Assembly: GCA_038884755.1 (NCBI GenBank)
Contig: JAWABJ010000001.1
Span: 32,001-96,000 of the forward strand
DNA from: Candidatus Norongarragalinales archaeon
Lineage (GTDB): Archaea; Micrarchaeota; Micrarchaeia; Norongarragalinales; Norongarragalinaceae
Length of the DNA: 64,000 bases
Direction: 5' to 3'
Shown: positions 2,725-13,105 of the stretch, piece by piece
How positions within the stretch are numbered: the first letter of the stretch is position 1
How the letters are laid out: every line of letters starts with the position of its first letter
Program-made: the position numbers and the translations under genes
Notes under the pieces: generated by a model
Databases searched by the model: none
Seen by the model: the letters and a program-made list of their open reading frames with translations, nothing else
What the model was told of the DNA's origin: nothing

Positions 2725-2997
2725 TCAATCACTTGTTGCCTTCAGCCCCCAGTTGTATGAAACTGCAATGAGCCACCCGACGAACCCGCCGACAATCAAA
2801 CCGAGAACGATGCTGGTTACCCACGCGCCTATAGCGAACGCTGGGGAGGCAAACTGCATCATGCCGTAGTACATGCTTCCGTAAGCTCCCATCATGCCGG
2901 CTGGCGTGCCTAGAACCAGGAGCCCGAAAATCCCGTGCAGCGCCGCGCCAGTTATTGCGCCTGAGACTACAGCAGCTTTTTCACTCAATTTTTCCAT
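2725..2997 (-). CDS. Small two-TM membrane protein with Met-rich loop (DUF5676-like)
   Basis: Two hydrophobic helices, loop MMGAYGSMYYGMM, ends IAVSYNW; directly after copA. Confidence 0.65.
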   Translation of the reverse strand: MEKLSEKAAVVSGAITGAALHGIFGLLVLGTPAGMMGAYGSMYYGMMQFASPAFAIGAWVTSIVLGLIVGGFVGWLIAVSYNWGLKATSD

Positions 2998-3015
2998 TCT
3001 TAATGCCCACCTCAC

Positions 3016-5247
3016 TTAGATTTTTTCCAGCCTCAACGACAGCGCGTTTGCAACTACGCTGACGCTGCTCAACGCCATTGCCGCGCCTGCGATTGCGGGC
3101 GACAGCAGCCAGCCCGTTTGCGCGTAGAACACGCCCGCCGCAATCGGAATGCCTATGACGTTGTAAATCATGGCCCAAAACAATCCGAGTTTGATTTTGC
3201 CGAGCGTTTTTCGCCCCAACAGCAGCGCGCGCGGCGCGTCTTCGACGTCGTTTTTCATGAGGACGATGCTTCCCGACTCCATGGCGATGTCCGTTCCGGA
3301 AGCCATTGCTATTCCCACGTCAGCCTGCGCCAAGGCAGGCGCGTCGTTGATGCCGTCTCCCACCATGGCAACTACCTTTCCCTCGTTTTGGAGTTTCTTA
3401 ATTTCTCCAGCCTTGTCCGCAGGTAAAACGTTCGCCAAAACTTTTTCTATTCCCGCTTGTTTTGCTATGGCTTTCGCAGTGCGTTCGTTGTCGCCGGTAA
3501 GCAGCACGGATTGTATTCCCATCGCGCGAAGGGATTCAACGGCTTTTTTCGCGTTGTGTTTTATCGTATCTGCGACTGCTATCACGCCAATGGGCTTGAG
3601 CGTGTCGGCGCGAGCGTTGCTTTCAAACAGAACCATCGCAGTTTTTCCTTCGGTTTCTAGCTTTTCCACTCCTGCAAGGGTTTTGGAATGGTTTTTGGGA
3701 GAGCCGATGAAGTAATGCTTCGCTCCCACTTTTCCGAAAACGCCCTTACCGGCGATTGCCTTGAACGAGGAAACTTTGCTTATCCTGGCTTTCTTTGCAA
3801 GCGCGTGGCCCACTATCGCTTCTGCAAGAGGGTGTTCGCTGGGTTTTTCTAGGGAAGCCGCTATTTCGATTATTTTTTTTTCAGGATAACCTTTGTCCAA
3901 TGCAATGACACGGGTGACTTTAGGTTTTCCTTCGGTGATAGTTCCGGTTTTGTCCCAGACTATAGCGTTTATTTTTCCCGTCCTCTCAAGTGCAACGGCG
4001 CTTTTTATCAAAATGCCTTTTTCAGCGCCCATTCCAGTTCCGACCATTATTGCGGTTGGAGTTGCAAGTCCAAGCGCGCAAGGGCAGGCTATGACGAGGA
4101 CGGAGACTGCAGCGACCAAAGCAAACGAAAACGCCTGCCCCGAGAAAAGCCAAGCGGCGAACGTCAGCATGGCGATGATGATAACTATGGGGACGAAAAC
4201 TGCTGAGACTTCGTCCGCAAAACGCTGTATGGGCGCTTGCGAGCCTTGCGCTTCCTCGACGAGCTTGATTATTTGCGACAACACCGTGTCCTTTCCTACT
4301 TTGGTTGCCTTGAATGTGAGCGAGCCGTGCTTGTTTAGCGTAGCGCCGTAAACTTTCGAGCCTTTCGTTTTTTCGACTGGCAGTGATTCGCCAGTAAGCA
4401 TGCTTTCGTCAACGCTCGAGTCTCCTTCAACAACAATTCCGTCGACCGGAATTTTCTCGCCGGGCCGCACGCGAATCAAATCCCCTGCAACCACTTGCTC
4501 TATGGGAATTTCTTTTTCCCTTCCGTTGCGTATTACGATGGCGGTTTTCGGATTCAATCCCACGAGTTTTTTGATCGCTTCCGAAGCCCTGCCTTTCGCG
4601 ATTGCTTCAAGATACTTCCCGAGCAGCACGAACGTAATCAAAATCGCTCCTATCTCGAAATAATTTTCTTTCACTAGCCCGAAGAGCGATGCGACCGAGT
4701 AAAAATAAGCGGCGCTAGTGCCCATTGCGATGAGCGTGTCCATGTTCGCGCTGAAAACGCGCAACCCGGAGAGAGTTCCTTGGTAGAATTGCTTGCCTGC
4801 CCAGAACTGAACTGGCGTGGCGAGCAAAAACAAGACTAGCGTTTTGAATTGGAATTCTGGCGTGAGCATTACTAATGCGAGGGCGGGAAACGAAAGCGCA
4901 GCTGAAACAATTACTTTTAATTTGAGCTCGTGCAGTTCACTTTCCTTAAGCATGGCCACGTGGTCATGTCCCGGCATTCCCATTGCTGGCGAAGGCGTGG
5001 AGTGGCCCATTTGCTTGGACTGCATTCCCTCCTCCATTCGGGGATACGCTTTGTAGCCGGTTTGCTCGACCGTGCTTACGATTTTTTTCTCGTCGCACTG
5101 GCGTTCATCGTATTCCACCGTCGCCTTTTCAGTCGCGTAATTCACGTTTGCGCTTTGCACTCCTGGCGTTTTCTCGAGCCTGCGTTTTATCAATACGCTG
5201 CACGAGGCACAGTGCATTCCTCCTATGTCGAAAACGCCTTTCCTCAT
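3016..5247 (-). CDS. copA: Cu(I)-translocating P1B-type ATPase
   Basis: [36 protein letters not shown] and MALSS motifs of P1B-1 ATPases. Confidence 0.97.
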
Positions 5248-5248
5248 T

Positions 5249-6193
5249 TCAACCGCCAAAGCCAACCCACGCCAAAGGCCCTTTGGGCGCGTAGACCATT
5301 ATCAAAACCAGTAGTAGTCCTACGGCCACGTTTGCAGCTACGATGTTCGGGCCAGACGGGAGTTTCGCCTTTCCTTCCCTTCCACCCGCTTCCTTCCAGA
5401 TCATGTAGCTCAACCCGCCCAAAACCACCGTGCAGGCAGCGAAAAGAATGAAGAGGAATGTGATGACGTGGTCGTTCAACAGCATTATGGTAGTCATGGC
5501 GCCCATTATTCCCGCCATCAAGCCCGCCATCAGCCCTTCCAGCACGCCCATTATCCCGCAGCAATAGCCCGTGTAAGCGCCTACGGCCATTCCGAAAAGC
5601 ATTCCGACCACGCTTCCGACGAACATTCCGTTGGAAGCCGCGACAACCGCACCGGCCATGAACCCGGTCATCATTCCCAACGCCATCCCTACCATCATTC
5701 CGTTCATGCACGTGAATTCCTTGCGGTACGCGATTGAATGCCACACTGCAAAGGCGTTGGCGCTTACTGCAACGGCAGAAAGCACGAACAGCCATTTGTA
5801 ATCCGCCAGCGGAATGTTCAGCACTATGGCTGCAAGAATTTCCGCGCCTATGGTAAGCAGGAAAGACAATAGCGTTGCTTGCAACAGTGACTGCTCCACT
5901 TGAAACCCGTGCTTTCCCCCGAACATCCCGAAAACGTAGTTCTTGCCGCTTTCGAAGGGGCTTTTTTCAACAGAGTAGTCTGTTTGCAGGGGCTGGCTGG
6001 AAAGGGAATATCCTTTCTCACGGACGGCCTGGATTATTTGCTTTTCGTCTTCCGGCTCGCACTCTATCGTGATGGCGCCAGTGTACTGGTTTGCCTCGAC
6101 CAGGCTCGCGCCGGGAAAAGAGGAAACGACGCGAGAAATAACGCGGGCGCAAGACTCGCACTCGAAGCCCTTTACGTAATAAGTGAATTTCAT
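5249..6193 (-). CDS. HMA domain fused to a Met/Gly-rich multi-pass membrane domain
   Basis: GFECESC N-terminus; [26 protein letters not shown] and [13 protein letters not shown] helices. Confidence 0.8.
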
Positions 6194-6214
6194 TTTTTTT
6201 CCCCCCCGGCTTTT

Positions 6215-6418
6215 TCAACTTAAAACAGCATAACCCTCTTTTTCGATTGCTTTCTTGATTTGAGTTTCGCTTGCCGGGGGTTCGAACTCCACCTCAACCG
6301 AGTTTTTCGAGTGGTTGGCTTTCACGTGAGAAACGCCCGTTATTTCGGATATAGCGTCTTCCACGAGAATTTCGCAGCTTTTGCAGTGCATTCCTTTTGT
6401 TTTGAAGCTTTTTTTCAT
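6215..6418 (-). CDS. copZ: Copper chaperone (single HMA domain)
   Basis: KGMHCKSC ... IEKEGY; start at ATG 6418 or 6424. Confidence 0.9.
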   Translation of the reverse strand: MKKSFKTKGMHCKSCEILVEDAISEITGVSHVKANHSKNSVEVEFEPPASETQIKKAIEKEGYAVLS

Positions 6419-6423
6419 GTACA

Positions 6424-6867
6424 TCACTCTGCTACGAGCTTTCCGCGGAACATGTTCATGCTGCACCTGTAAACGAATTCTCCTGCAGGCGGAGTGAAGC
6501 GGAAAGTCTGTATCTTGCCGCTTTCAGCTACTGCCCTTATGCCGAAGTCTTTCATCACGAAAGAGCGGCTGCAGCCGGCGGTCTTGTCCGCGGTGAGCCT
6601 GAGCTCGACAGGAACGCCCGCCTTGACCCTCACCGTGGAAGGCTCGTATCCCGACGCCGTCGCCGTTATTTCGACCACCTGCGCTTTCCTTTCTTCATCA
6701 GTCGGTTGCTGTCCCGTGTTTATACCGCTTCCAGACGTCGAAGGGATTGAGAAAATCAAAAGCCCAACGCCGAGAATGCCGAGCGCAATCAAGCCTAATA
6801 GTATTAACGCACCTTTTTCCAACATAAACACCCTGCCGTAATCATGCGGATTTTTCTTGTTCCCCAC
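6424..6867 (-). CDS. Membrane-anchored cupredoxin-domain protein (CupA-like)
   Basis: TM, GYEPSTVRVKAGVPV, GCSRSF, FVYRCSMNMFRGKL; alternative start ATG 6825. Confidence 0.85.
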   Translation of the reverse strand: MGNKKNPHDYGRVFMLEKGALILLGLIALGILGVGLLIFSIPSTSGSGINTGQQPTDEERKAQVVEITATASGYEPSTVRVKAGVPVELRLTADKTAGCSRSFVMKDFGIRAVAESGKIQTFRFTPPAGEFVYRCSMNMFRGKLVAE

Positions 6868-6876
6868 AAGAAATTT

Positions 6877-7134
6877 TCAGCTTTTTTCAAAGTAATTGTA
6901 AACTTTTGCGTAAAGAGCGCCGATGGCGAATCCCGAAATCATGCTCAAGGCCAGCCCTATTGCCGTAGTAACAACATCCAGAGGTTTTGAGTTCAACAAA
7001 ATGCCGTGGAAAATGTAGTTTCCGAATGCCAGCGTCAAGTCCGGCAAGAGCGTAAAGGCAATGGCGCAAACCACGTACAAAATGCCCCACGTGCCGCCTA
7101 CAGCGTATCCTGTTTTCTTCGCGTCCAAAGCCAT
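6877..7134 (-). CDS. Small two-TM membrane protein (DUF5676-like), first gene of the cop operon
   Basis: LYVVCA, IFHG, ends YAKVYNYF; same layout as 2725-2997. Confidence 0.7.
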   Translation of the reverse strand: MALDAKKTGYAVGGTWGILYVVCAIAFTLLPDLTLAFGNYIFHGILLNSKPLDVVTTAIGLALSMISGFAIGALYAKVYNYFEKS

Positions 7135-7183
7135 TCTTTTTCCTCTGAATTCCAATTCGCTTTACATAATGCAGCGCACCGGG

Positions 7184-7210
7184 TATTTAAAGTTTTACTA
7201 CAACTGTAAA
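7184..7210 (-). promoter_or_regulatory. TATA-like box plus operator palindrome (copy 1)
   Basis: TTTACT-ACAAC-TGTAAA at 7194-7210, 2 nt from minus-strand TTTAAATA (7184-7191). Confidence 0.75.
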
Positions 7211-7214
7211 GCTT

Positions 7215-7535
7215 TTAACCCAGTATTTCGCCAAGAGTTTTTCCGGTTGCCTTACGCAGGAATGAAGGTTCAACTTGCCTGAGGCAATCGGCGTATTGCC
7301 CTGGGTGGTGAGACAAGTGCTGTACGTTCGCCTCATCCTTTAAATTCCCGCACTCGTTTCCCAAAGCCTGCGCCTGCGCAGCGAAATACTGTTCGTTGGA
7401 CTGCGTTTCCAAAAGCAGTCCGCGCGAGTCTCGGTCCAACTGGGGTTTTGACGTTGCGGCGAAAGCGCTCCAAGCCAAGACCAGCGTGGAGCCGAAAATC
7501 ACGGCGTAAAGCAGGTATTCGTTTTTCATTTCCAT
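7215..7535 (-). CDS. Small secreted/anchored protein with C...HLSHH...C motif
   Basis: Signal-like N-terminus; ECGNLKDEANVQHLSHHPGQYADCL. Confidence 0.75.
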   Translation of the reverse strand: MEMKNEYLLYAVIFGSTLVLAWSAFAATSKPQLDRDSRGLLLETQSNEQYFAAQAQALGNECGNLKDEANVQHLSHHPGQYADCLRQVEPSFLRKATGKTLGEILG

Positions 7536-7563
7536 TTCAAACCATCTCCGTTTTTTTTTTCAA

Positions 7564-8133
7564 TCACTCCAAAAACCTCGCCGCGTAAGCCGCGATTATC
7601 GCAACACTCGCGACGATGCTCGCCTTGAATGCGAAATCGAATTGCGCCGCGCTAAAATGCCTGATTACCGGGTATTTTCCGCCGATGCGAATTTTCTTGA
7701 AAACCCCCAGCATCATGATTATGCCTACGACGTTCGACAACACTCCGATAATCAGGAACAGTTCTTGGTATCGCGATAAAACCGTTGCGAAGGCGGCAAG
7801 CCCCACGAACGGGAGTGCGTCTGTGAAGTGGTGGGCGCAGCACGCGACCATGGCGCCTGTTGACATGCCTCCCGCTGCAGCAACGCCGCCCTTAGCTTTC
7901 GCCAGCGCCGTTTTTTCGGCAATCGATTTTTTGAGCGTGGCGTAGAGGTACGCTTGGGTGGCGAAGCCCATTACGAGCGCAGCAATCCACGGGAAAAGCC
8001 TTTTGAATTCTGCAGCAGCTACGTCCCACGGGTTTGTAGCAAGCATGAGCCCGAAGAATACGGCGAGCAGGAACGAGCCTCCCGCTATTCCAGCCAAAAG
8101 GGGGTGTTTCCACAACGGCGAACACGAAGCCAA
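7564..8133 (-). CDS. Multi-pass membrane protein with MVACCAHH motif
   Basis: About 5 hydrophobic helices, GMSTGAMVACCAHH; TTG start. Confidence 0.8.
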   Translation of the reverse strand: MASCSPLWKHPLLAGIAGGSFLLAVFFGLMLATNPWDVAAAEFKRLFPWIAALVMGFATQAYLYATLKKSIAEKTALAKAKGGVAAAGGMSTGAMVACCAHHFTDALPFVGLAAFATVLSRYQELFLIIGVLSNVVGIIMMLGVFKKIRIGGKYPVIRHFSAAQFDFAFKASIVASVAIIAAYAARFLE

Positions 8134-8136
8134 GCG

Positions 8137-8165
8137 ATTACCTTTACAACTTTTGTAAAAGTAAT
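8137..8165. promoter_or_regulatory. Operator palindrome (copy 2)
   Basis: ATTAC-C-TTTACA-ACTTT-TGTAAA-A-GTAAT; core 8143-8159, downstream of minus-strand TATTTAAG (8178-8185). Confidence 0.8.
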
Positions 8166-8205
8166 GGCGTGCTTCCGCTTAAATAGTTTTTGCTTTTCTC
8201 GGCGT

Positions 8206-8961
8206 TTAGCAGTCGAGGGAAACCTTGCGTTTTGCGGAATCGAGATGTCGGCAAGTGTCTTGCCTGCTTGCTGCGTAAGAATCGGCTTTGAGCTCCTCTG
8301 TGTCTACGCTGAACCCGAAGCTGCGCACTGCGGCGAAAGGCGAGAATGCCTTCAGGAGTGCGGAAGAGAACTTGAACCACGAAGATGCGTTTTTCACGTG
8401 CGCCAATTCGTGCAAGAGCACCGCCTCGATTTCCTTTTTGTTGAGAGTCTCTTGCATTCCCACACTGACGAAAATGCTGGGATTGAAGAAACCAAGCGTA
8501 AATGCAGAAGGCTTGCCGGAATCGAGTGACCGCAGTTCCGGCGTTTTGGAAAGCTTCAGCCGCCTGGCTTCGTTTTCAACGAACCTGCGCAGGCCCTGCG
8601 GCGCTTTCAAGCTCGTTTGCTTGTAATAACGCGGCAGCATTATGAATCCCGCAATCACGGTTCCGATTATGATAAGAGGCAGCGAATAGAGCAGGAATTG
8701 GGTTATTGTAACCGCGCATGTTATCGAAGCGACTTGGCAGGAAATGGACAATGCAAGGAAAACAAGCGGCGCGAACAGGAACGCCAAATGCAAATACACC
8801 AGCGAAATGCGCTGCTTGTGCGAGAGTGTTTTGTCGTTGAGTTTTAGGAACAATAGAAGCGCTAGTGCAAGCGAGGTTATCGAGAGGGTTACGTTGACGG
8901 GATTAGCGAAAAAACCTGCTACGACGTCAGCCAAATGCTCCAGCATCAGGTCTTCAAACAT
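8206..8961 (-). CDS. BlaR1-like membrane zinc metallopeptidase (M56/M48) without penicillin-binding domain
   Basis: Three N-terminal TMs, PSAFTLG...IFVSVG, EIEAVLLHELAHVK, EELKAD; directly after the BlaI-family gene. Confidence 0.85.
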   Translation of the reverse strand: MFEDLMLEHLADVVAGFFANPVNVTLSITSLALALLLFLKLNDKTLSHKQRISLVYLHLAFLFAPLVFLALSISCQVASITCAVTITQFLLYSLPLIIIGTVIAGFIMLPRYYKQTSLKAPQGLRRFVENEARRLKLSKTPELRSLDSGKPSAFTLGFFNPSIFVSVGMQETLNKKEIEAVLLHELAHVKNASSWFKFSSALLKAFSPFAAVRSFGFSVDTEELKADSYAASRQDTCRHLDSAKRKVSLDC

Positions 8962-8971
8962 TCAACCACAA

Positions 8972-9349
8972 TTACTTCTTGAAGCGCTCGTTAAAATAGC
9001 TTACAGCAGTGCTTCCGAAGCCCTCTATAAGCTTGTTGACTGCGTTTTCCAAAACCGAGTATTCCAGGTCTTTCTTCGAGGCTTTCGCGCTGTAAACGTA
9101 ATACTGCCCGCCTCTGCCGTAAAGCGCTTTGCGTGTAACCAGCTTTTTGTCGTGCAGCCTGTCGAGAATGACTGCCACGCTGGTCAAGGCGCTTTTGCTT
9201 TTCAGCTTTTTGTGAATATCGCGCACGGTCGCTTCGCGACATCTGCACAGCACTTCCAAAACCTCGCTTTCGAGCGGGCTGAGCAAAGCGTTCAATCCCT
9301 TGGTTTTCGATCCCAGCTTTTCAAAACGTAGGCCCTTCACGTCTACCAT
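8972..9349 (-). CDS. BlaI/MecI/CopY-family winged-helix repressor
   Basis: LSPLESEVLEVL, ATVRDI, TSVAVILDRLHDKKLVTR, YVYSA; no C-terminal CopY Cys cluster. Confidence 0.9.
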   Translation of the reverse strand: MVDVKGLRFEKLGSKTKGLNALLSPLESEVLEVLCRCREATVRDIHKKLKSKSALTSVAVILDRLHDKKLVTRKALYGRGGQYYVYSAKASKKDLEYSVLENAVNKLIEGFGSTAVSYFNERFKK

Positions 9350-9371
9350 AGAATGAAAATGCCACTTGCCT

Positions 9372-9408
9372 TATTTAAAGCTTTACAACAAATGCAAAGG
9401 TTTATTAA
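9372..9408. promoter_or_regulatory. Back-to-back TATA-like boxes flanking operator (copy 3)
   Basis: Minus-strand TTTAAATA 9372-9379, TTTACA-ACAAA-TGCAAA 9382-9398, plus-strand TTTATTAA 9401-9408. Confidence 0.75.
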
Positions 9409-9437
9409 ACACCTGCGACACGAAACTTTCGTAAAGT

Positions 9438-9454
9438 TTTACAAATGTTGTAAA
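9438..9454. promoter_or_regulatory. Operator palindrome (copy 4)
   Basis: TTTACA-AATGT-TGTAAA just upstream of the rightward gene. Confidence 0.8.
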
Positions 9455-9464
9455 GGTGGTTGTT

Positions 9465-10223
9465 TTGAGCGAGCACGAACGAAAGGCGCAGGACTTTTCC
9501 ATGCCCGTTTACGCGGCGATGGCGTTGTTGGTGCTGGTCTTGGCTTTCAACCAATATCAGCTTTCCACGCTTTCAAACCAGATATTGCTTTATTCAGCGC
9601 CGGCTTTGGGCGCAGGCGGCAGCGTCGGGCAGCAGCCCGCTTCTGGCGCAACCTCTGGTGCAAGCTTGCAGGCGGTTGTTGACCGCGTGATTCCCAAGGG
9701 AGTGCCGGACGTTTACGGTTCAGAGTTGGGTGTGAGTTACGACAAGCCCGTGGAAAGCCTGACGATTCTGGGAAAGCTTGACGGCGACTTGTATCCTGAC
9801 GGCACCCTCAAGTTTGCGGATTTGGATTCTGACGCGCAGCAGAGGTACGTTGCGCTGGGGAAAATGATTGCTTGCGAGTACTGTTGCGGTGCGACCGAAC
9901 TGGTTTTTTCTAACGGCCAGCCGGCTTGCGGCTGCCAGCACTCTGCAGCCATGCGCGGGCTTGCAAAGTATTTGCTTTTGAAACACCCCGACTTAGAAGA
10001 CAGTGCGATTCTTGAGGAGATGGCCAAGTGGAAGATACTGTTCTTCCCCAAGCAGCACATTTCGAAAGCGGTTTCCTTCGCTTCGTCCGGGATGGATTCG
10101 AACATAAACCCGACTGATTTGGCTTCCAACGAATTCCGGGGCTTCAAGGCCTCGTCTTCATCGCAGTCTCAGTCTTCATCCCAAAACATCGCAAACGCGC
10201 CCGACATGGTCGGAGGTTGCTGA
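9465..10223 (+). CDS. Membrane-anchored Cys-rich protein ending MVGGC
   Basis: TM; IACEYCCG...ACGCQHSAAMRG; Ser-rich linker; ANAPDMVGGC; start uncertain (9456/9465/9501). Confidence 0.8.
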   Translation: MSEHERKAQDFSMPVYAAMALLVLVLAFNQYQLSTLSNQILLYSAPALGAGGSVGQQPASGATSGASLQAVVDRVIPKGVPDVYGSELGVSYDKPVESLTILGKLDGDLYPDGTLKFADLDSDAQQRYVALGKMIACEYCCGATELVFSNGQPACGCQHSAAMRGLAKYLLLKHPDLEDSAILEEMAKWKILFFPKQHISKAVSFASSGMDSNINPTDLASNEFRGFKASSSSQSQSSSQNIANAPDMVGGC

Positions 10224-10224
10224 A

Positions 10225-10263
10225 ATGTACGGAAAAAAGAAAAAGAAAGGCGGCTGTTGCTGA
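10225..10263 (+). CDS. Putative 12-aa peptide MYGKKKKKGGCC
   Basis: ATG 1 nt after the upstream stop, GGAGGT 7 nt upstream, same GGC-type ending as both neighbours. Confidence 0.4.
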   Translation: MYGKKKKKGGCC

Positions 10264-10317
10264 TGGTTTTTTCTAAAAAGAAAAATCAAGTGAAGAAAAA
10301 ACAATGGAGGTGTTGCA

Positions 10318-10536
10318 ATGAACCAGCAGTTGGTTTTCGGAGTTTTGATAGGCGTTTTGGTAGTAGTGAGCGCGTTCCAAGCTGTGCAACTTTCGCAATT
10401 GAACGCGCAAGTGCAGTCCGGAATCGCGAAAAATTCTTTTGAACCCCGATCAGGCGGGAGCGCGCAACAATCCGGCGGAGACGTTCAGTTGCCCGCAGGA
10501 CTCGCCAACGCTCCAAACATGGTGGGCGGTTGCTGA
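10318..10536 (+). CDS. Small membrane-anchored protein ending MVGGC
   Basis: GGAGGTG RBS, TM, ANAPNMVGGC. Confidence 0.8.
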   Translation: MNQQLVFGVLIGVLVVVSAFQAVQLSQLNAQVQSGIAKNSFEPRSGGSAQQSGGDVQLPAGLANAPNMVGGC

Positions 10537-10585
10537 AGAAAATCCGCCCCCCCTCTTCACTCCCCAGTAAGGCCGCGTGTTGTTA

Positions 10586-11197
10586 ATGAAAATTTTGTTG
10601 TCTGCATTGTTTGCCTTGGTTGCGTTGGCCGTTTTAGGCAGTAGTCTTATTTCCGCCTACTCCCCGCAAAACGCCGTGATTTACAAGAACGAGGCTTGCG
10701 GTCACTGCTCTTCTTACATTTTGAGCCTATACAAATTCCTGGAATCTGCAGGAGTTAAGCAAATCGAAGTCAAGGATTTTTTGGGTGACGTACAGGCGCG
10801 GAGAGAGGTTGCAGAACTGCAAGAGCGTTTTGCAGTGCCTTTTGAAATGCAAGGGCACTTGCTTACAATCGTGGACGGAAAGTACTTGTTTGAAGGGCAC
10901 TTTCCCCTAGACGTGATGGACAAGTTTTTGCGCGAGGAAGCGCAGGACTATTCTTCGCTCGTGGTAACGCAGGATTCTATGGAGAAAGTAAGTTCTTACT
11001 TCCACCTCAAGGACGGAAATGTTTTGGAATGTCCAATAGCCCAACCCATCTCGGAATGCTCGCACAACAGACGACAGTCGCAATCGGGAGGATGGGATTT
11101 GCTTAAAGTGCGTGTTGGCGCCAACGCCGCTGTCTTGGGTTTGCTTGCTTTAGCGTTGGTGTTTCTGGTTTTGGTTTACGCGAAAGTGATAAAATGA
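10586..11197 (+). CDS. Exported thioredoxin-fold protein, DUF411/CopG-like, with C-terminal TM
   Basis: IYKNEACGHC ... VDGKYLFEGHFP resembles DUF411 YKxxxCGCC ... GYxxEGHVP. Confidence 0.7.
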   Translation: MKILLSALFALVALAVLGSSLISAYSPQNAVIYKNEACGHCSSYILSLYKFLESAGVKQIEVKDFLGDVQARREVAELQERFAVPFEMQGHLLTIVDGKYLFEGHFPLDVMDKFLREEAQDYSSLVVTQDSMEKVSSYFHLKDGNVLECPIAQPISECSHNRRQSQSGGWDLLKVRVGANAAVLGLLALALVFLVLVYAKVIK

Positions 11198-11868
11198 CCC
11201 TTGAATCCCTCCTTCCGCTCGTGGCAGTTTCAGGAGTAATTGATGGCTTGCACCCGTGCGGCTTTGCAGTGCTATTGTTTTTCATCGCGTTCCTTCTTTC
11301 GCTGGAGCACAAGCGCAAAAGCATTCTGCTCATGGGCGCCGCGTTCATTTTCGGGGTTTTCATCACTTATCTCTTGATAGGCTTGGGGATTTTGAAAGTC
11401 TTCACTTTCTTCACCCCGCACTTTATATCAAAAGTTGGCGCGCTGCTGGCAATACTAGTCGGATTAATCGACATTAAGGATGCGTTTGCAGGTACGAATA
11501 CCCTCACTATCCCTAAGTTTGCTTCTCCTCACATAAACAAGACAATTGAGAAAGCAACCATTCCCGCCGCGCTTGTCGCAGGATTGCTTGTAGGATTATG
11601 CGCGTTCCCGTGCGCAGGCGGGATTTATGTTGCGGTGTTGGGACTGTTGAACGCGCAGGCTACGGCGTTGGATGGCTTTGCGCTGCTTGTGCTTTACAAC
11701 CTGATGTTCGTCTTGCCTCTAGCGCTCGTCCTACTTTTCGCTTCAAACGCGAGCGTGATAGACGGGATAGAACGGTTCCAGCATAGGCACAAGAAGGCAT
11801 ACAAGCTTGCATTGGGGACGATAATGATCTTATTCGGGCTGCTGATTTTGTACGGCGGCTTCATGTAG
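11194..11868 (+). CDS. ccdA: CcdA/DsbD-type transmembrane disulfide interchange protein
   Basis: Six TMs, DGLHPCGF and AFPCAGGIY. Confidence 0.8.
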   Translation: MTLESLLPLVAVSGVIDGLHPCGFAVLLFFIAFLLSLEHKRKSILLMGAAFIFGVFITYLLIGLGILKVFTFFTPHFISKVGALLAILVGLIDIKDAFAGTNTLTIPKFASPHINKTIEKATIPAALVAGLLVGLCAFPCAGGIYVAVLGLLNAQATALDGFALLVLYNLMFVLPLALVLLFASNASVIDGIERFQHRHKKAYKLALGTIMILFGLLILYGGFM

Positions 11869-12877: not shown

Positions 12878-13105
12878 ATGGAATTTTCGAAAGCGATGGC
12901 GTTGAGGTGCACGCTGGTTTTGGGAGTTGCGGGAATGTTGTTTTCCGGTTATTTGAGCTTTGGGGAGCTTTTCGGAGTGGGCGCGGGCGGCTCTTGCCCC
13001 GCCGCGTCTGCGGCGATTTTGGGCGTTCCCACCTGCGTGTACGGCTTCGTGATGTACGCCATAATCACGATAGTTTCCTTGGCAGGACTGACCGCGAGAG
13101 AGTGA
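12878..13105 (+). CDS. Small membrane protein resembling the N-terminal half of VKOR
   Basis: GMLFSGYLS...SC...ILGVPTCVYG. Confidence 0.6.
   Translation: MEFSKAMALRCTLVLGVAGMLFSGYLSFGELFGVGAGGSCPAASAAILGVPTCVYGFVMYAIITIVSLAGLTARE

Follow-up and report, generated by a model that had tools for sequence, protein, structure and literature searches.

A BlaI-type repressor and a sensor-less BlaR1-like membrane protease as a candidate copper/thiol switch of a DPANN archaeon

In the genome of a Candidatus Norongarragalinales archaeon, a gene for a BlaI/MecI/CopY-family repressor and one for a membrane zinc peptidase lie between a copper-export (cop) operon and a divergent operon for a cysteine-rich protein and a CcdA-like thiol electron carrier, which raises the question whether a design known from bacterial antibiotic sensing serves metal or redox control at archaeal promoters. 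The locus belongs to a stretch of 64,000 nucleotides (nt), referred to as the window (assembly GCA_038884755.1, contig JAWABJ010000001.1, positions 32,001 to 96,000 of the forward strand). The source genome (926,659 bp on 9 contigs, 93% complete) is that of a DPANN archaeon, the nearest homologues of the peptidase carry the name Candidatus Micrarchaeota, and one strong Penicillinase_R gene and one M56 gene are present. With a probability of about 0.5, the pair acts as a proteolytic derepression switch with an outward-facing cysteine pair of the protease as input and copper, or thiol damage caused by copper, as signal.

A repressor, a membrane protease and four operators

Repressor and peptidase genes are separated by 10 nt and form a single operon, with the repressor gene first. 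The repressor scores 54 bits against Pfam Penicillinase_R (PF03965; curated cut-off 22.6), and a profile of 25 orthologues finds BlaI of Mycobacterium tuberculosis (2g9w, 8.2e-7) and of Staphylococcus aureus (1sd4, 8.8e-7), MecI (1.8e-5) and CopR of Lactococcus lactis (2k4b, 3e-5). The original prediction, made from the sequence by a model, had placed the protein in this family and had described it as lacking a C-terminal cysteine cluster, and both statements hold. In the repressor family, neither cysteine nor histidine is found among the invariant or 90%-conserved columns of the 25 sequences, none is conserved in an alignment of 44 sequences, and the C-terminal CxCx4CxC site of CopY type is not present in either alignment. 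CopY senses copper itself via this motif; direct copper sensing by the archaeal repressor was rejected because no cysteine or histidine is conserved. Conserved in the 44 sequences are LSPLE, the recognition-helix region and a C-terminal FG.xAVxYFNERF tail. The latter aligns pairwise, though weakly (E 0.012), with GGFNSLVLNF of MecI, a stretch that we take to hold the N101/F102 cleavage site. Alignments to BlaI and MecI reach approximately residue 90-103 of those proteins, and the archaeal repressors end about 5-20 residues later.

The peptidase matches both Peptidase_M48 (4.9e-10; 40 bits versus a cut-off of 20.3) and Peptidase_M56 (PF05569, 5.1e-10; 39.4 bits versus 31), with HELAH at residues 184-188 and E223-x2-A-D, while NCBIfam HtpX models all score far below their cut-offs (19-36 bits versus 245-422). 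As had been predicted, it shows no penicillin-binding domain, and also no fourth transmembrane (TM) helix or other Pfam domain, the protein ending at residue 251 after the protease domain. The best 150 relatives among 1.84 billion representatives are all 140-270 amino acids (aa) long, hence without a fused sensor. The AlphaFold model (pLDDT 88.4) includes a helix at the N-terminus, long hydrophobic helices at 21-40, 48-72 and 83-116 and a gluzincin domain, with no hydrophobic helix after residue 116. Searching with this model, Foldseek lists ZMPSTE24 (7e-5) and S. aureus BlaR1 (8exp_A, 9.7e-5, TM-score 0.53). In the VIA structural comparison, S. aureus BlaR1 (8ext_A) comes first with Z 12.0 and a root mean square deviation (rmsd) of 4.2 over 194 residues (model 27-251 versus chain 1-286), a Z value tied within 1 with that of Ste24 (11.8), with HtpX at 10.6. 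The BlaR1 entries provide the longest alignments (194-206 residues), which start at model residue 23-27 and take in the TM helices, whereas the other matches with Z >10 align 88-153 residues, those of Ste24, BepA, HtpX and selecase beginning at model residue 94 or later and that of the peptidase 3c37 at 55.

The C-x6-C motif that had been pointed out between TM2 and TM3 is borne out by sequence and model as C75 and C82 within SISCQVASITCAV (residues 72-84), and its conservation, proposed as a check, is almost complete. In the first 39 homologues (30-81% identical), C75, C82, H184, E185, H188, E223 and P110 are invariant. Both loop cysteines are present in all 47 loop-covering sequences from 48 species-representative archaeal loci (the window's own included) and in 173 of 175 sequences of a set of 184 members, 145 of them additional cluster representatives, the whole family comprising 162 clusters (50% identity) at E up to 1e-30. 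Spacing is mostly x6 (111 sequences) or x11 (29), the full range being x1 to x19. No consistent cysteine pair occurs at this loop in 32 bacterial M56 relatives from the same scan, ten of which have no cysteine at all before HExxH, so the pair is a trait of the archaeal family and not of the fold. In line with the topology that the original prediction had called for checking, the charge distribution follows a positive-inside pattern family-wide, which puts the N-terminus and the cysteine loop on the outer side of the membrane and loop 1 and the protease domain on the cytoplasmic side; on average, the cysteine loop contains 0.29 lysine plus arginine residues versus 3.6 and 5.8 in the flanking cytoplasmic segments. 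The N-terminal segment, predicted to be outside, carries an extra cysteine in 84 of 157 relatives, 29 of these with CxxC. H58 had been considered as a third ligand and was dropped, as model and charge topology place it five residues into TM2 from the cytoplasmic side.

Palindromes shared by the promoters, the remaining structural element of the prediction, are clearly present. A direct-repeat search yields a block of 32 nt common to positions 7184, 9372 and 9428, together with an inverted match of 21 nt linking 8140 to 9437, and the operator core TTTACA-N5-TGTAAA forms four palindromes at four TATA-type promoters (O1 to O4, Table 1). When allowing one mismatch, TTTAC-N7-GTAAA has 8 matches in the window versus 1.94 expected, a number reached by none of 100 shuffles, and five of the eight fall into 6171-9454. 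The exact motif occurs three times in the whole 926,659-bp genome, always at this locus (window positions 7194, 8143 and 9438), and TTTACA-N5-TGTAAA with at most one mismatch to its 12 specified bases six times, four of them here. O1 and O4 share one layout, with the operator one to two bases upstream of the TTTAAATA box of the repressor and cop promoters, respectively, while O3 and O2 cover the predicted start sites of the 189-aa and Cys-rich genes, 20-30 nt past a TATA-like box. As the repressor ATG follows its box by about 26 nt, a leaderless transcript is predicted. Both layouts would fit usual archaeal repression by blocking entry of TBP/TFB or polymerase. A sigma-70 promoter scan, not relevant for an archaeon, gave 8 matches versus 7.3 expected.

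The operator is conserved across DPANN phyla. With up to two mismatches allowed, the 250 nt upstream of the gene contain a site in 32 of 43 loci for the BlaI homologue and in 18 of 31 for the Cys-rich gene, compared with a background of 0.196 sites per kb. The consensus from relatives reads AAGC[T/G]TTACA-N5-[T/C]GTAAAG, and the cop operator of the window, O4, carries the extended AAGC arm. The predicted regulon is local and comprises four units, the cop operon among them. For the region 6800-10300, a search of sequencing data sets listed one DNA set, from a hot-spring metagenome, and no RNA set.

In the switch that we favor, the repressor would bind the four palindromes and block TBP/TFB or RNA polymerase there. 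Bridging of C75 and C82 by Cu(I), or their oxidation, would then be passed through TM3 to the cytoplasmic zinc site, upon which the protease would cut or degrade the repressor, perhaps from its conserved YFNERF tail onwards. Until the stress is cleared, this would derepress all four transcription units, the switch's own operon among them.

Partners in relatives and the nature of the input

The contig scan gave 48 archaeal loci besides the 32 weak bacterial M56 loci. The former are labelled as Woesearchaeota (17), Aenigmatarchaeota (6), Nanoarchaeota (3), Iainarchaeum, Burarchaeum, Norongarragalinales, unassigned (11) and 'uncultured Methanosarcinales' (8). The latter labels (L009, L016, L017, L019, L021, L027, L034 and L044; one a 969-kb contig) may be automatic and should not be read as evidence for the module in Methanosarcinales. 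Immediately upstream of the protease gene, 43 of the 48 loci carry a BlaI homologue, which is every locus that could be assessed, as the protease sits at a contig edge in the other five. Within a phylum sample of 151 Micrarchaeota genomes, which are related and non-independent so that no statistic is given, the full-length protease family is found in 13 genomes plus one cut and one divergent copy (about 15), whereas approximately 87 others match only through the catalytic core of HtpX-like open reading frames (ORFs) of about 300 aa. The Cys-rich family occurs in 15 of the 151 genomes, 14 of them shared with the protease (union 16), and where both occur their genes are on the same contig within about 3.5 kb. 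The switch is an accessory module travelling with the Cys-rich gene, usually in a copper island.

Linkage to copper genes, which the prediction had proposed to survey, is found within the phylum, and like the other computational checks proposed, this one favors the prediction. Of the 15 Micrarchaeota genomes with the protease, 11 have a CopA homologue no more than 15 kb away on the same contig, and nine no more than 10 kb away. At the locus itself, O4 heads a string of genes for DUF5676, cupredoxin, CopZ, an HMA membrane protein and CopA. In locus L013 (Aenigmatarchaeota) an exact operator is located 32 nt before a gene for a four-TM protein, followed by the homologue of the 106-aa protein and CopZ/CopA, and in L009, L016, L017 and L026 the protease gene is separated by only a few bases from a subsequent HMA/cupredoxin gene. 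Neither a TRASH-type (Arc_trans_TRASH) nor a CsoR-type (PF02583) copper regulator was detected in the 93%-complete genome. In three related Micrarchaeota genomes, the CopA homologue beside the switch was read through in-frame stops (G085:C1:709781-712104, G145:C11:87872-90070 and G147:C1:72842-75031) and may represent broken copA genes or sequencing errors.

Unbiased clustering of neighboring ORFs from -7 to +6 kb of the protease in the 48 loci shows which partners are constant. Most frequent is the Cys-rich family (34 loci; 31 by tblastn), followed by a triple-thioredoxin family (25), DsbD_TM proteins (23), an anchored His/Cys/Met-rich family without Pfam match (23), HMA-domain proteins (CopA, HMA membrane protein and cupredoxin fusions; 19), the 72-aa VGGC protein (12), a four-TM protein with QVCHxxC (11), Lgt (10) and DsbA (10).

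Several observations weigh against a copper-driven proteolytic switch. Across the relatives, the surveyed linkage does not stand as a rule: homologues of CopA, CopZ, the HMA membrane protein or cupredoxin are found by tblastn in only 14 of the 48 loci (one at 27% identity), copA thus not being a constant partner; the constant ones are the Cys-rich and thioredoxin/DsbD genes, while copper genes are common but not universal. In the relatives, no operator is present within 250 nt upstream of a copA, copZ or cupredoxin homologue itself, the exact operator in L013 heading an operon that ends in copZ/copA from a position about 0.8 kb further upstream. CopA is encoded in 95 of the 151 Micrarchaeota genomes compared with about 15 for the protease, so most copA genes in the phylum do without the switch. 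The sequence of the peptidase is as close to M48/HtpX as to M56, and a profile search of PDB sequences lists HtpX (3cqb, 2e-9), Ste24 and selecase, with no BlaR1 at E up to 0.01. Operators adjoining TATA boxes might conceivably mediate activation, as is the case for the cyanobacterial factor PetR at petJ, and the invariant cysteines, located where two helices end on the outer side, might form a plain structural disulfide. Finally, a BlaI-type cut removing C-terminal dimerization helices probably cannot apply as such: the predicted repressor ends a few residues past the aligned MecI cleavage region (alignment weak and site presumed, as above). PetR-like degradation, or a cut at the repressor tail, is more likely than a BlaI-style cut.

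The constancy of the thiol partners speaks for the main alternative, in which the proteolytic relay is the same, but the input is the redox state of surface thiols and not a metal, C75 and C82 forming or exchanging a disulfide. The main output would then be a surface thiol-reducing pathway, with copper genes as passengers in some lineages. The counts given above for Cys-rich, triple-thioredoxin, DsbD_TM/CcdA and DsbA neighbors and the tight co-occurrence of protease and Cys-rich genes in Micrarchaeota agree with this, and the variable cysteine spacing and the extra N-terminal CxxC fit thiol chemistry better than a fixed metal site. Moreover, when the model of the Cys-rich protein (pLDDT 83) was compared with 48,161 chains, a Z of at least 5 was reached only by CcmH, a thiol oxidoreductase of the periplasm (2hl7_A; Z 6.2, rmsd 3.7, 77 of 82 residues). 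This likeness is a lead, with a score below the level trusted for helical matches, and Foldseek returned nothing at E 0.001 or better with the same model, CcmH coming first at E 1.2. However, one of four operators heads the copper-export operon in the source genome, CopA accompanies the protease in most of the Micrarchaeota carriers as described, and many other neighbors are His/Met/Cys-rich proteins of metal type. Overall, a purely redox input appears rather unlikely. Copper itself oxidizes thiols, so the two inputs are hard to separate, and as the constant partners are Cys-rich and thioredoxin/DsbD proteins rather than CopA, the input may be either of the two originally named, copper or disulfide state.

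Much less probable is the absence of any relay, in which case the peptidase would be a quality-control protease of the membrane, similar to HtpX, and its operon partner, the repressor, would answer another cytoplasmic cue. M48/HtpX models do score as well as M56, the peptidase is without fourth TM helix or sensor domain, and the repressor appears to be without the C-terminal part that BlaR1 removes from BlaI. This is opposed by the strict pairing in all assessable loci, the distinctness of the family from the HtpX-like ORFs of the approximately 87 other genomes, the BlaR1 entries as longest structural alignments and the ones spanning all three TM helices, an outward-predicted invariant cysteine pair with no obvious role in a housekeeping protease, and a repressor with no conserved ligand-type residues.

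Of similarly small probability is a co-sensor, in which the protease loop would be secondary and the Cys-rich and 72-aa VGGC proteins would pick up copper or oxidizing equivalents and pass the signal to C75/C82. The Cys-rich protein has an N-terminal anchor, invariant C137, C140, C141, C155, C157 and H159 (C-x2-CC ... CGC-x-H) and a C-terminal V-G-G-C invariant in all 21 aligned members. Its family is DPANN-wide and the most constant partner of the repressor-protease pair. No Pfam family matches, and Atlas matches are unnamed clusters. The tight co-occurrence and divergent adjacency of its gene and the V-G-G-C shared with the tail of the 72-aa protein speak for such a role. It would resemble the BlaR1 sensor domain, which contacts the same loop; according to the available part of the PetR/PetP preprint, the TM2-TM3 loop is the part of BlaR/MecR contacted by the sensor domain (bioRxiv 10.1101/2020.07.31.226407). 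On the other hand, 14 of the 48 loci show no Cys-rich family member within the stretch examined, and the gene carries an operator, which fits a target at least as well.

Returning to the proteolytic switch, repressor destruction turning on copper-export and thiol-repair genes is likely, a route demonstrated to date in cyanobacteria only. A more detailed version is possible, with the odds somewhat against it: in DPANN archaea a three-helix BlaR1-like protease would read copper or thiol damage at the surface via its cysteine pair and destroy a repressor on TATA-type promoters, in a fixed module with an undescribed CcmH-like VGGC surface family, which, together with the protease loop, would form a thiol relay for sensing as well as repairing copper damage outside the cell.

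Flanking genes and surface proteins

The minus-strand genes run from the repressor at 9349 down to the DUF5676-like gene at 2725, and the divergent plus-strand operon covers 9456-11868 (Table 1). The flanking position between a cop operon and a Cys-rich/CcdA operon, as originally described, is borne out by Pfam matches and sequence motifs of these genes. The CopA motifs given in the table were read in the sequence and presumably have their usual meaning.

Table 1. Features of the switch locus (window coordinates;. indicates palindromic elements).
Feature	Position	Strand	Evidence or remark
BlaI/MecI/CopY-family winged-helix repressor, 125 aa	8972..9349	-	Pfam Penicillinase_R E 2.6e-14
Sensor-less M48/M56 membrane zinc peptidase, 251 aa	8206..8961	-	Pfam, conservation, model, BlaR1 structural match
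189-aa membrane protein with CCAHH motif, no known family; first gene behind O3	7564..8133	-	Pfam/NCBIfam-type scans, sequence
Secreted or anchored 106-aa protein with HLSHHP and two conserved Cys; found behind operators also in relatives	7215..7535	-	relatives' loci
DUF5676 two-TM protein; first gene behind O4	6877..7155	-	Pfam 4e-14
Cupredoxin_1-domain protein	6424..6867	-	Pfam 2.5e-14
HMA-domain copper chaperone, CopZ-like	6215..6466	-	Pfam HMA 5.7e-15
HMA domain fused to Met/Gly-rich membrane domain	5249..6193	-	Pfam HMA 2.5e-8
CopA, P1B-type copper ATPase, HMA domain; CPC, DKTGT, YN ... MALSS	3016..5265	-	Pfam E1-E2_ATPase 4.9e-65, HMA 2.8e-19
DUF5676-like two-TM protein, 96 aa, last of cop string	2725..3015	-	Pfam 0.0078, below cut-off
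Membrane-anchored Cys-rich protein, 255 aa, start GTG 9456 or TTG 9465	9456..10223	+	relatives' alignment; no Pfam family
72-aa protein, one TM helix, C-terminal LPxMVGGC tail	10318..10536	+	sequence
206-aa CxxC protein, weak DUF411 (CopG-like) match below cut-off	10577..11197	+	E 0.0019, 18.3 bits versus cut-off 27
CcdA/DsbD-like membrane thiol electron carrier	11194..11868	+	Cys motifs HPCGF and FPCAGG; Pfam SfLAP 3.3e-10
Operator O1 TTTACAACAAATGCAAA, 1 mismatch	9382..9398	.	one base from TATA-like box of repressor-protease promoter
TATA-like box CTTTAAATAA of repressor-protease operon, predicted	9371..9380	-	sequence reading; about 26 nt upstream of ATG 9349
Operator O2 TTTACAAATGTTGTAAA, perfect arms	9438..9454	.	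over predicted transcription start of Cys-rich operon, past TATA-like TTTATTAAA (9401-9409)
Operator O3 TTTACAACTTTTGTAAA	8143..8159	.	in 72-nt spacer after peptidase gene; past TATA-like TATTTAAG (8178-8185), 10 nt before TTG 8133
Operator O4 TTTACTACAACTGTAAA, minus strand AAGC-TTTACAGTTGTAGTAAA	7194..7210	.	adjoins TATA-like CTTTAAATA (7184-7192), head of cop operon

Outside the window, two weaker Penicillinase_R-like matches are present in the genome (C1:663928-664149, E 3.1e-5, and C1:479008-479247, E 1.7e-4, the latter with two in-frame stops); neither adjoins an M56 gene.

Downstream of the cop string, three thioredoxin-fold genes are located at 162-2608, encoding a DsbA-like protein, a 127-aa thioredoxin and a 386-aa protein with Pfam thioredoxin-type matches mostly at residues 52-122 and one weak match at 306-334. 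Homologues of the latter accompany the switch in 25 of the 48 loci. As regulon members at this locus, these genes were dropped, the 116-nt spacer at 2609-2724 being without operator. In relatives, a neighbor family related to the CcdA/DsbD-like carrier matches DsbD_TM at 1e-12. Beside the thiol genes, a 75-aa ORF at 12878-13105 gives a sub-threshold VKOR match covering the first part of the profile only (E 1.3e-4, 22.6 bits versus a cut-off of 27.5) and may encode a truncated or very short vitamin-K-epoxide-reductase-like protein.

Both the Cys-rich and the 72-aa protein are membrane-anchored and end in the same LPxMVGGC tail. A lipobox-like lipidation signal was considered for the VGGC tail and dropped, as the 93%-complete genome shows no Lgt and yet keeps the tail. 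A homologue of Lgt, the bacterial-type prolipoprotein diacylglyceryl transferase (PF01790, E 3.4e-77; L021:1639-2379), is encoded near the module in 10 of the 48 DPANN loci, where neighboring proteins have LLTGC signals resembling a lipobox at their N-terminus. The anchored family lacking a Pfam match (about 225 aa; L024:2080-2754 and 22 other loci) bears the motifs DGKCDxCGM, HIHA and HMHATG and looks like an undescribed surface metal-binding protein; a homologue was not detected in the window. A four-TM protein with a membrane-embedded Cys/His motif is encoded directly behind an operator both in the window, with CCAHH (7564-8133), and in relatives, with QVCHxxC (L013:6404-6832 and 10 other loci). 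The two occupy the same position and show no blastp similarity at E 0.01.

Comparison with known switches and meaning for DPANN archaea

The system is an archaeal version of a known switch type and not categorically new. The antibiotic-sensing design that the original prediction saw reused for metal control would be new in its archaeal TATA-promoter setting but not as a reuse, PetR/PetP having already been published (bioRxiv 10.1101/2020.07.31.226407, as far as the available part of the text goes). In Synechocystis sp. PCC 6803, degradation of PetR requires PetP and copper, as described by Garcia-Canas et al. in the available part of the preprint (bioRxiv 10.1101/2020.07.31.226407) and of the PNAS commentary (PMC7896320). 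PetP has no sensor domain, and conserved M53 and M58 in its 14-residue TM2-TM3 loop are the proposed copper ligands in that part of the preprint. Common to both systems are an operon in which a BlaI/CopY-family factor lacking the cysteine motif of CopY precedes a sensor-less M48/M56 membrane protease, soft-metal candidate ligands in a short TM2-TM3 loop, with a ligand function proposed in both cases, and an inverted-repeat operator. In contrast to PetP, which has a fourth TM helix (residues 256-278) and two methionines, the archaeal proteins stop at the end of the protease domain and carry a pair of cysteines. Likewise, the PetR operator is GAC-N5-GTC compared with TAC-N7-GTA in the archaeon, the PetR regulon consists of petE, petJ and two small genes (a cofactor swap) compared with copper export and surface thiol genes, and PetR/PetP act at bacterial sigma-70 promoters whereas the archaeal ones are of TATA type.

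With BlaI/BlaR1 and MecI/MecR1 of Staphylococcus, the pair shares the repressor family, a TACA/TGTA-type dyad and the three N-terminal TM helices preceding a cytoplasmic gluzincin domain. It differs in lacking TM4 and the extracellular penicillin-binding sensor, in having the repressor gene first, in a repressor truncated shortly past the aligned and presumed MecI cleavage region, and in targets other than beta-lactamase or PBP2a. HtpX and Ste24 (M48) share the HExxH ... E-x2-A-D catalytic core in sequence and fold matches, but they align to the catalytic domain only (model 94/109-250) and have neither a repressor pairing nor the cysteine loop. CopY/CopR of Firmicutes belong to the same winged-helix family and, as predicted for the archaeal repressor, control a cop operon via a TACA/TGTA dyad; their operator, given as TACANNTGTA in the available part of the source (PMC7253601), has a half-site spacing of 2 compared with 5 in the archaeal one.

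Sensor-less BlaIR-family pairs are also represented by CenIR of Clostridioides difficile and by Rv1846c/Rv1845c of M. tuberculosis with its M. abscessus orthologue, whose signal is unknown, and M56 without identifiable sensor is the most abundant M56 architecture in InterPro, according to the available part of the CenIR paper (PMC13492132). That part names only the mycobacterial pair as a studied example, with no mention of copper or PetR. These pairs likewise combine a BlaI-type repressor with an M56 protease devoid of a transpeptidase-like domain; in the text available, they are bacterial, control essential genes and energy metabolism, and have no reported loop cysteine pair.

The copper regulators known from archaea are metal-binding factors of TRASH/Lrp type that act in the cytoplasm. 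A literature search, largely of openly accessible papers, gave no archaeal description of a BlaI/M56-type pair and no membrane protease transmitting an external signal through destruction of a transcription factor in archaea. If the proposed mechanism is true, regulated proteolysis would be added to archaeal signal transduction, and the PetRP principle would extend from a cyanobacterial cofactor switch to metal and thiol defense in another domain of life. The signals of sensor-less BlaR1 relatives are mostly unknown, and the invariant loop cysteine pair, at the place where PetP has methionines, offers a testable candidate ligand site. As a small self-contained regulon with four operators in 2.3 kb, the locus also provides an experimental handle, and the switch ties to conserved Cys/His/Met-rich surface proteins of ultra-small archaea that have no assigned function.

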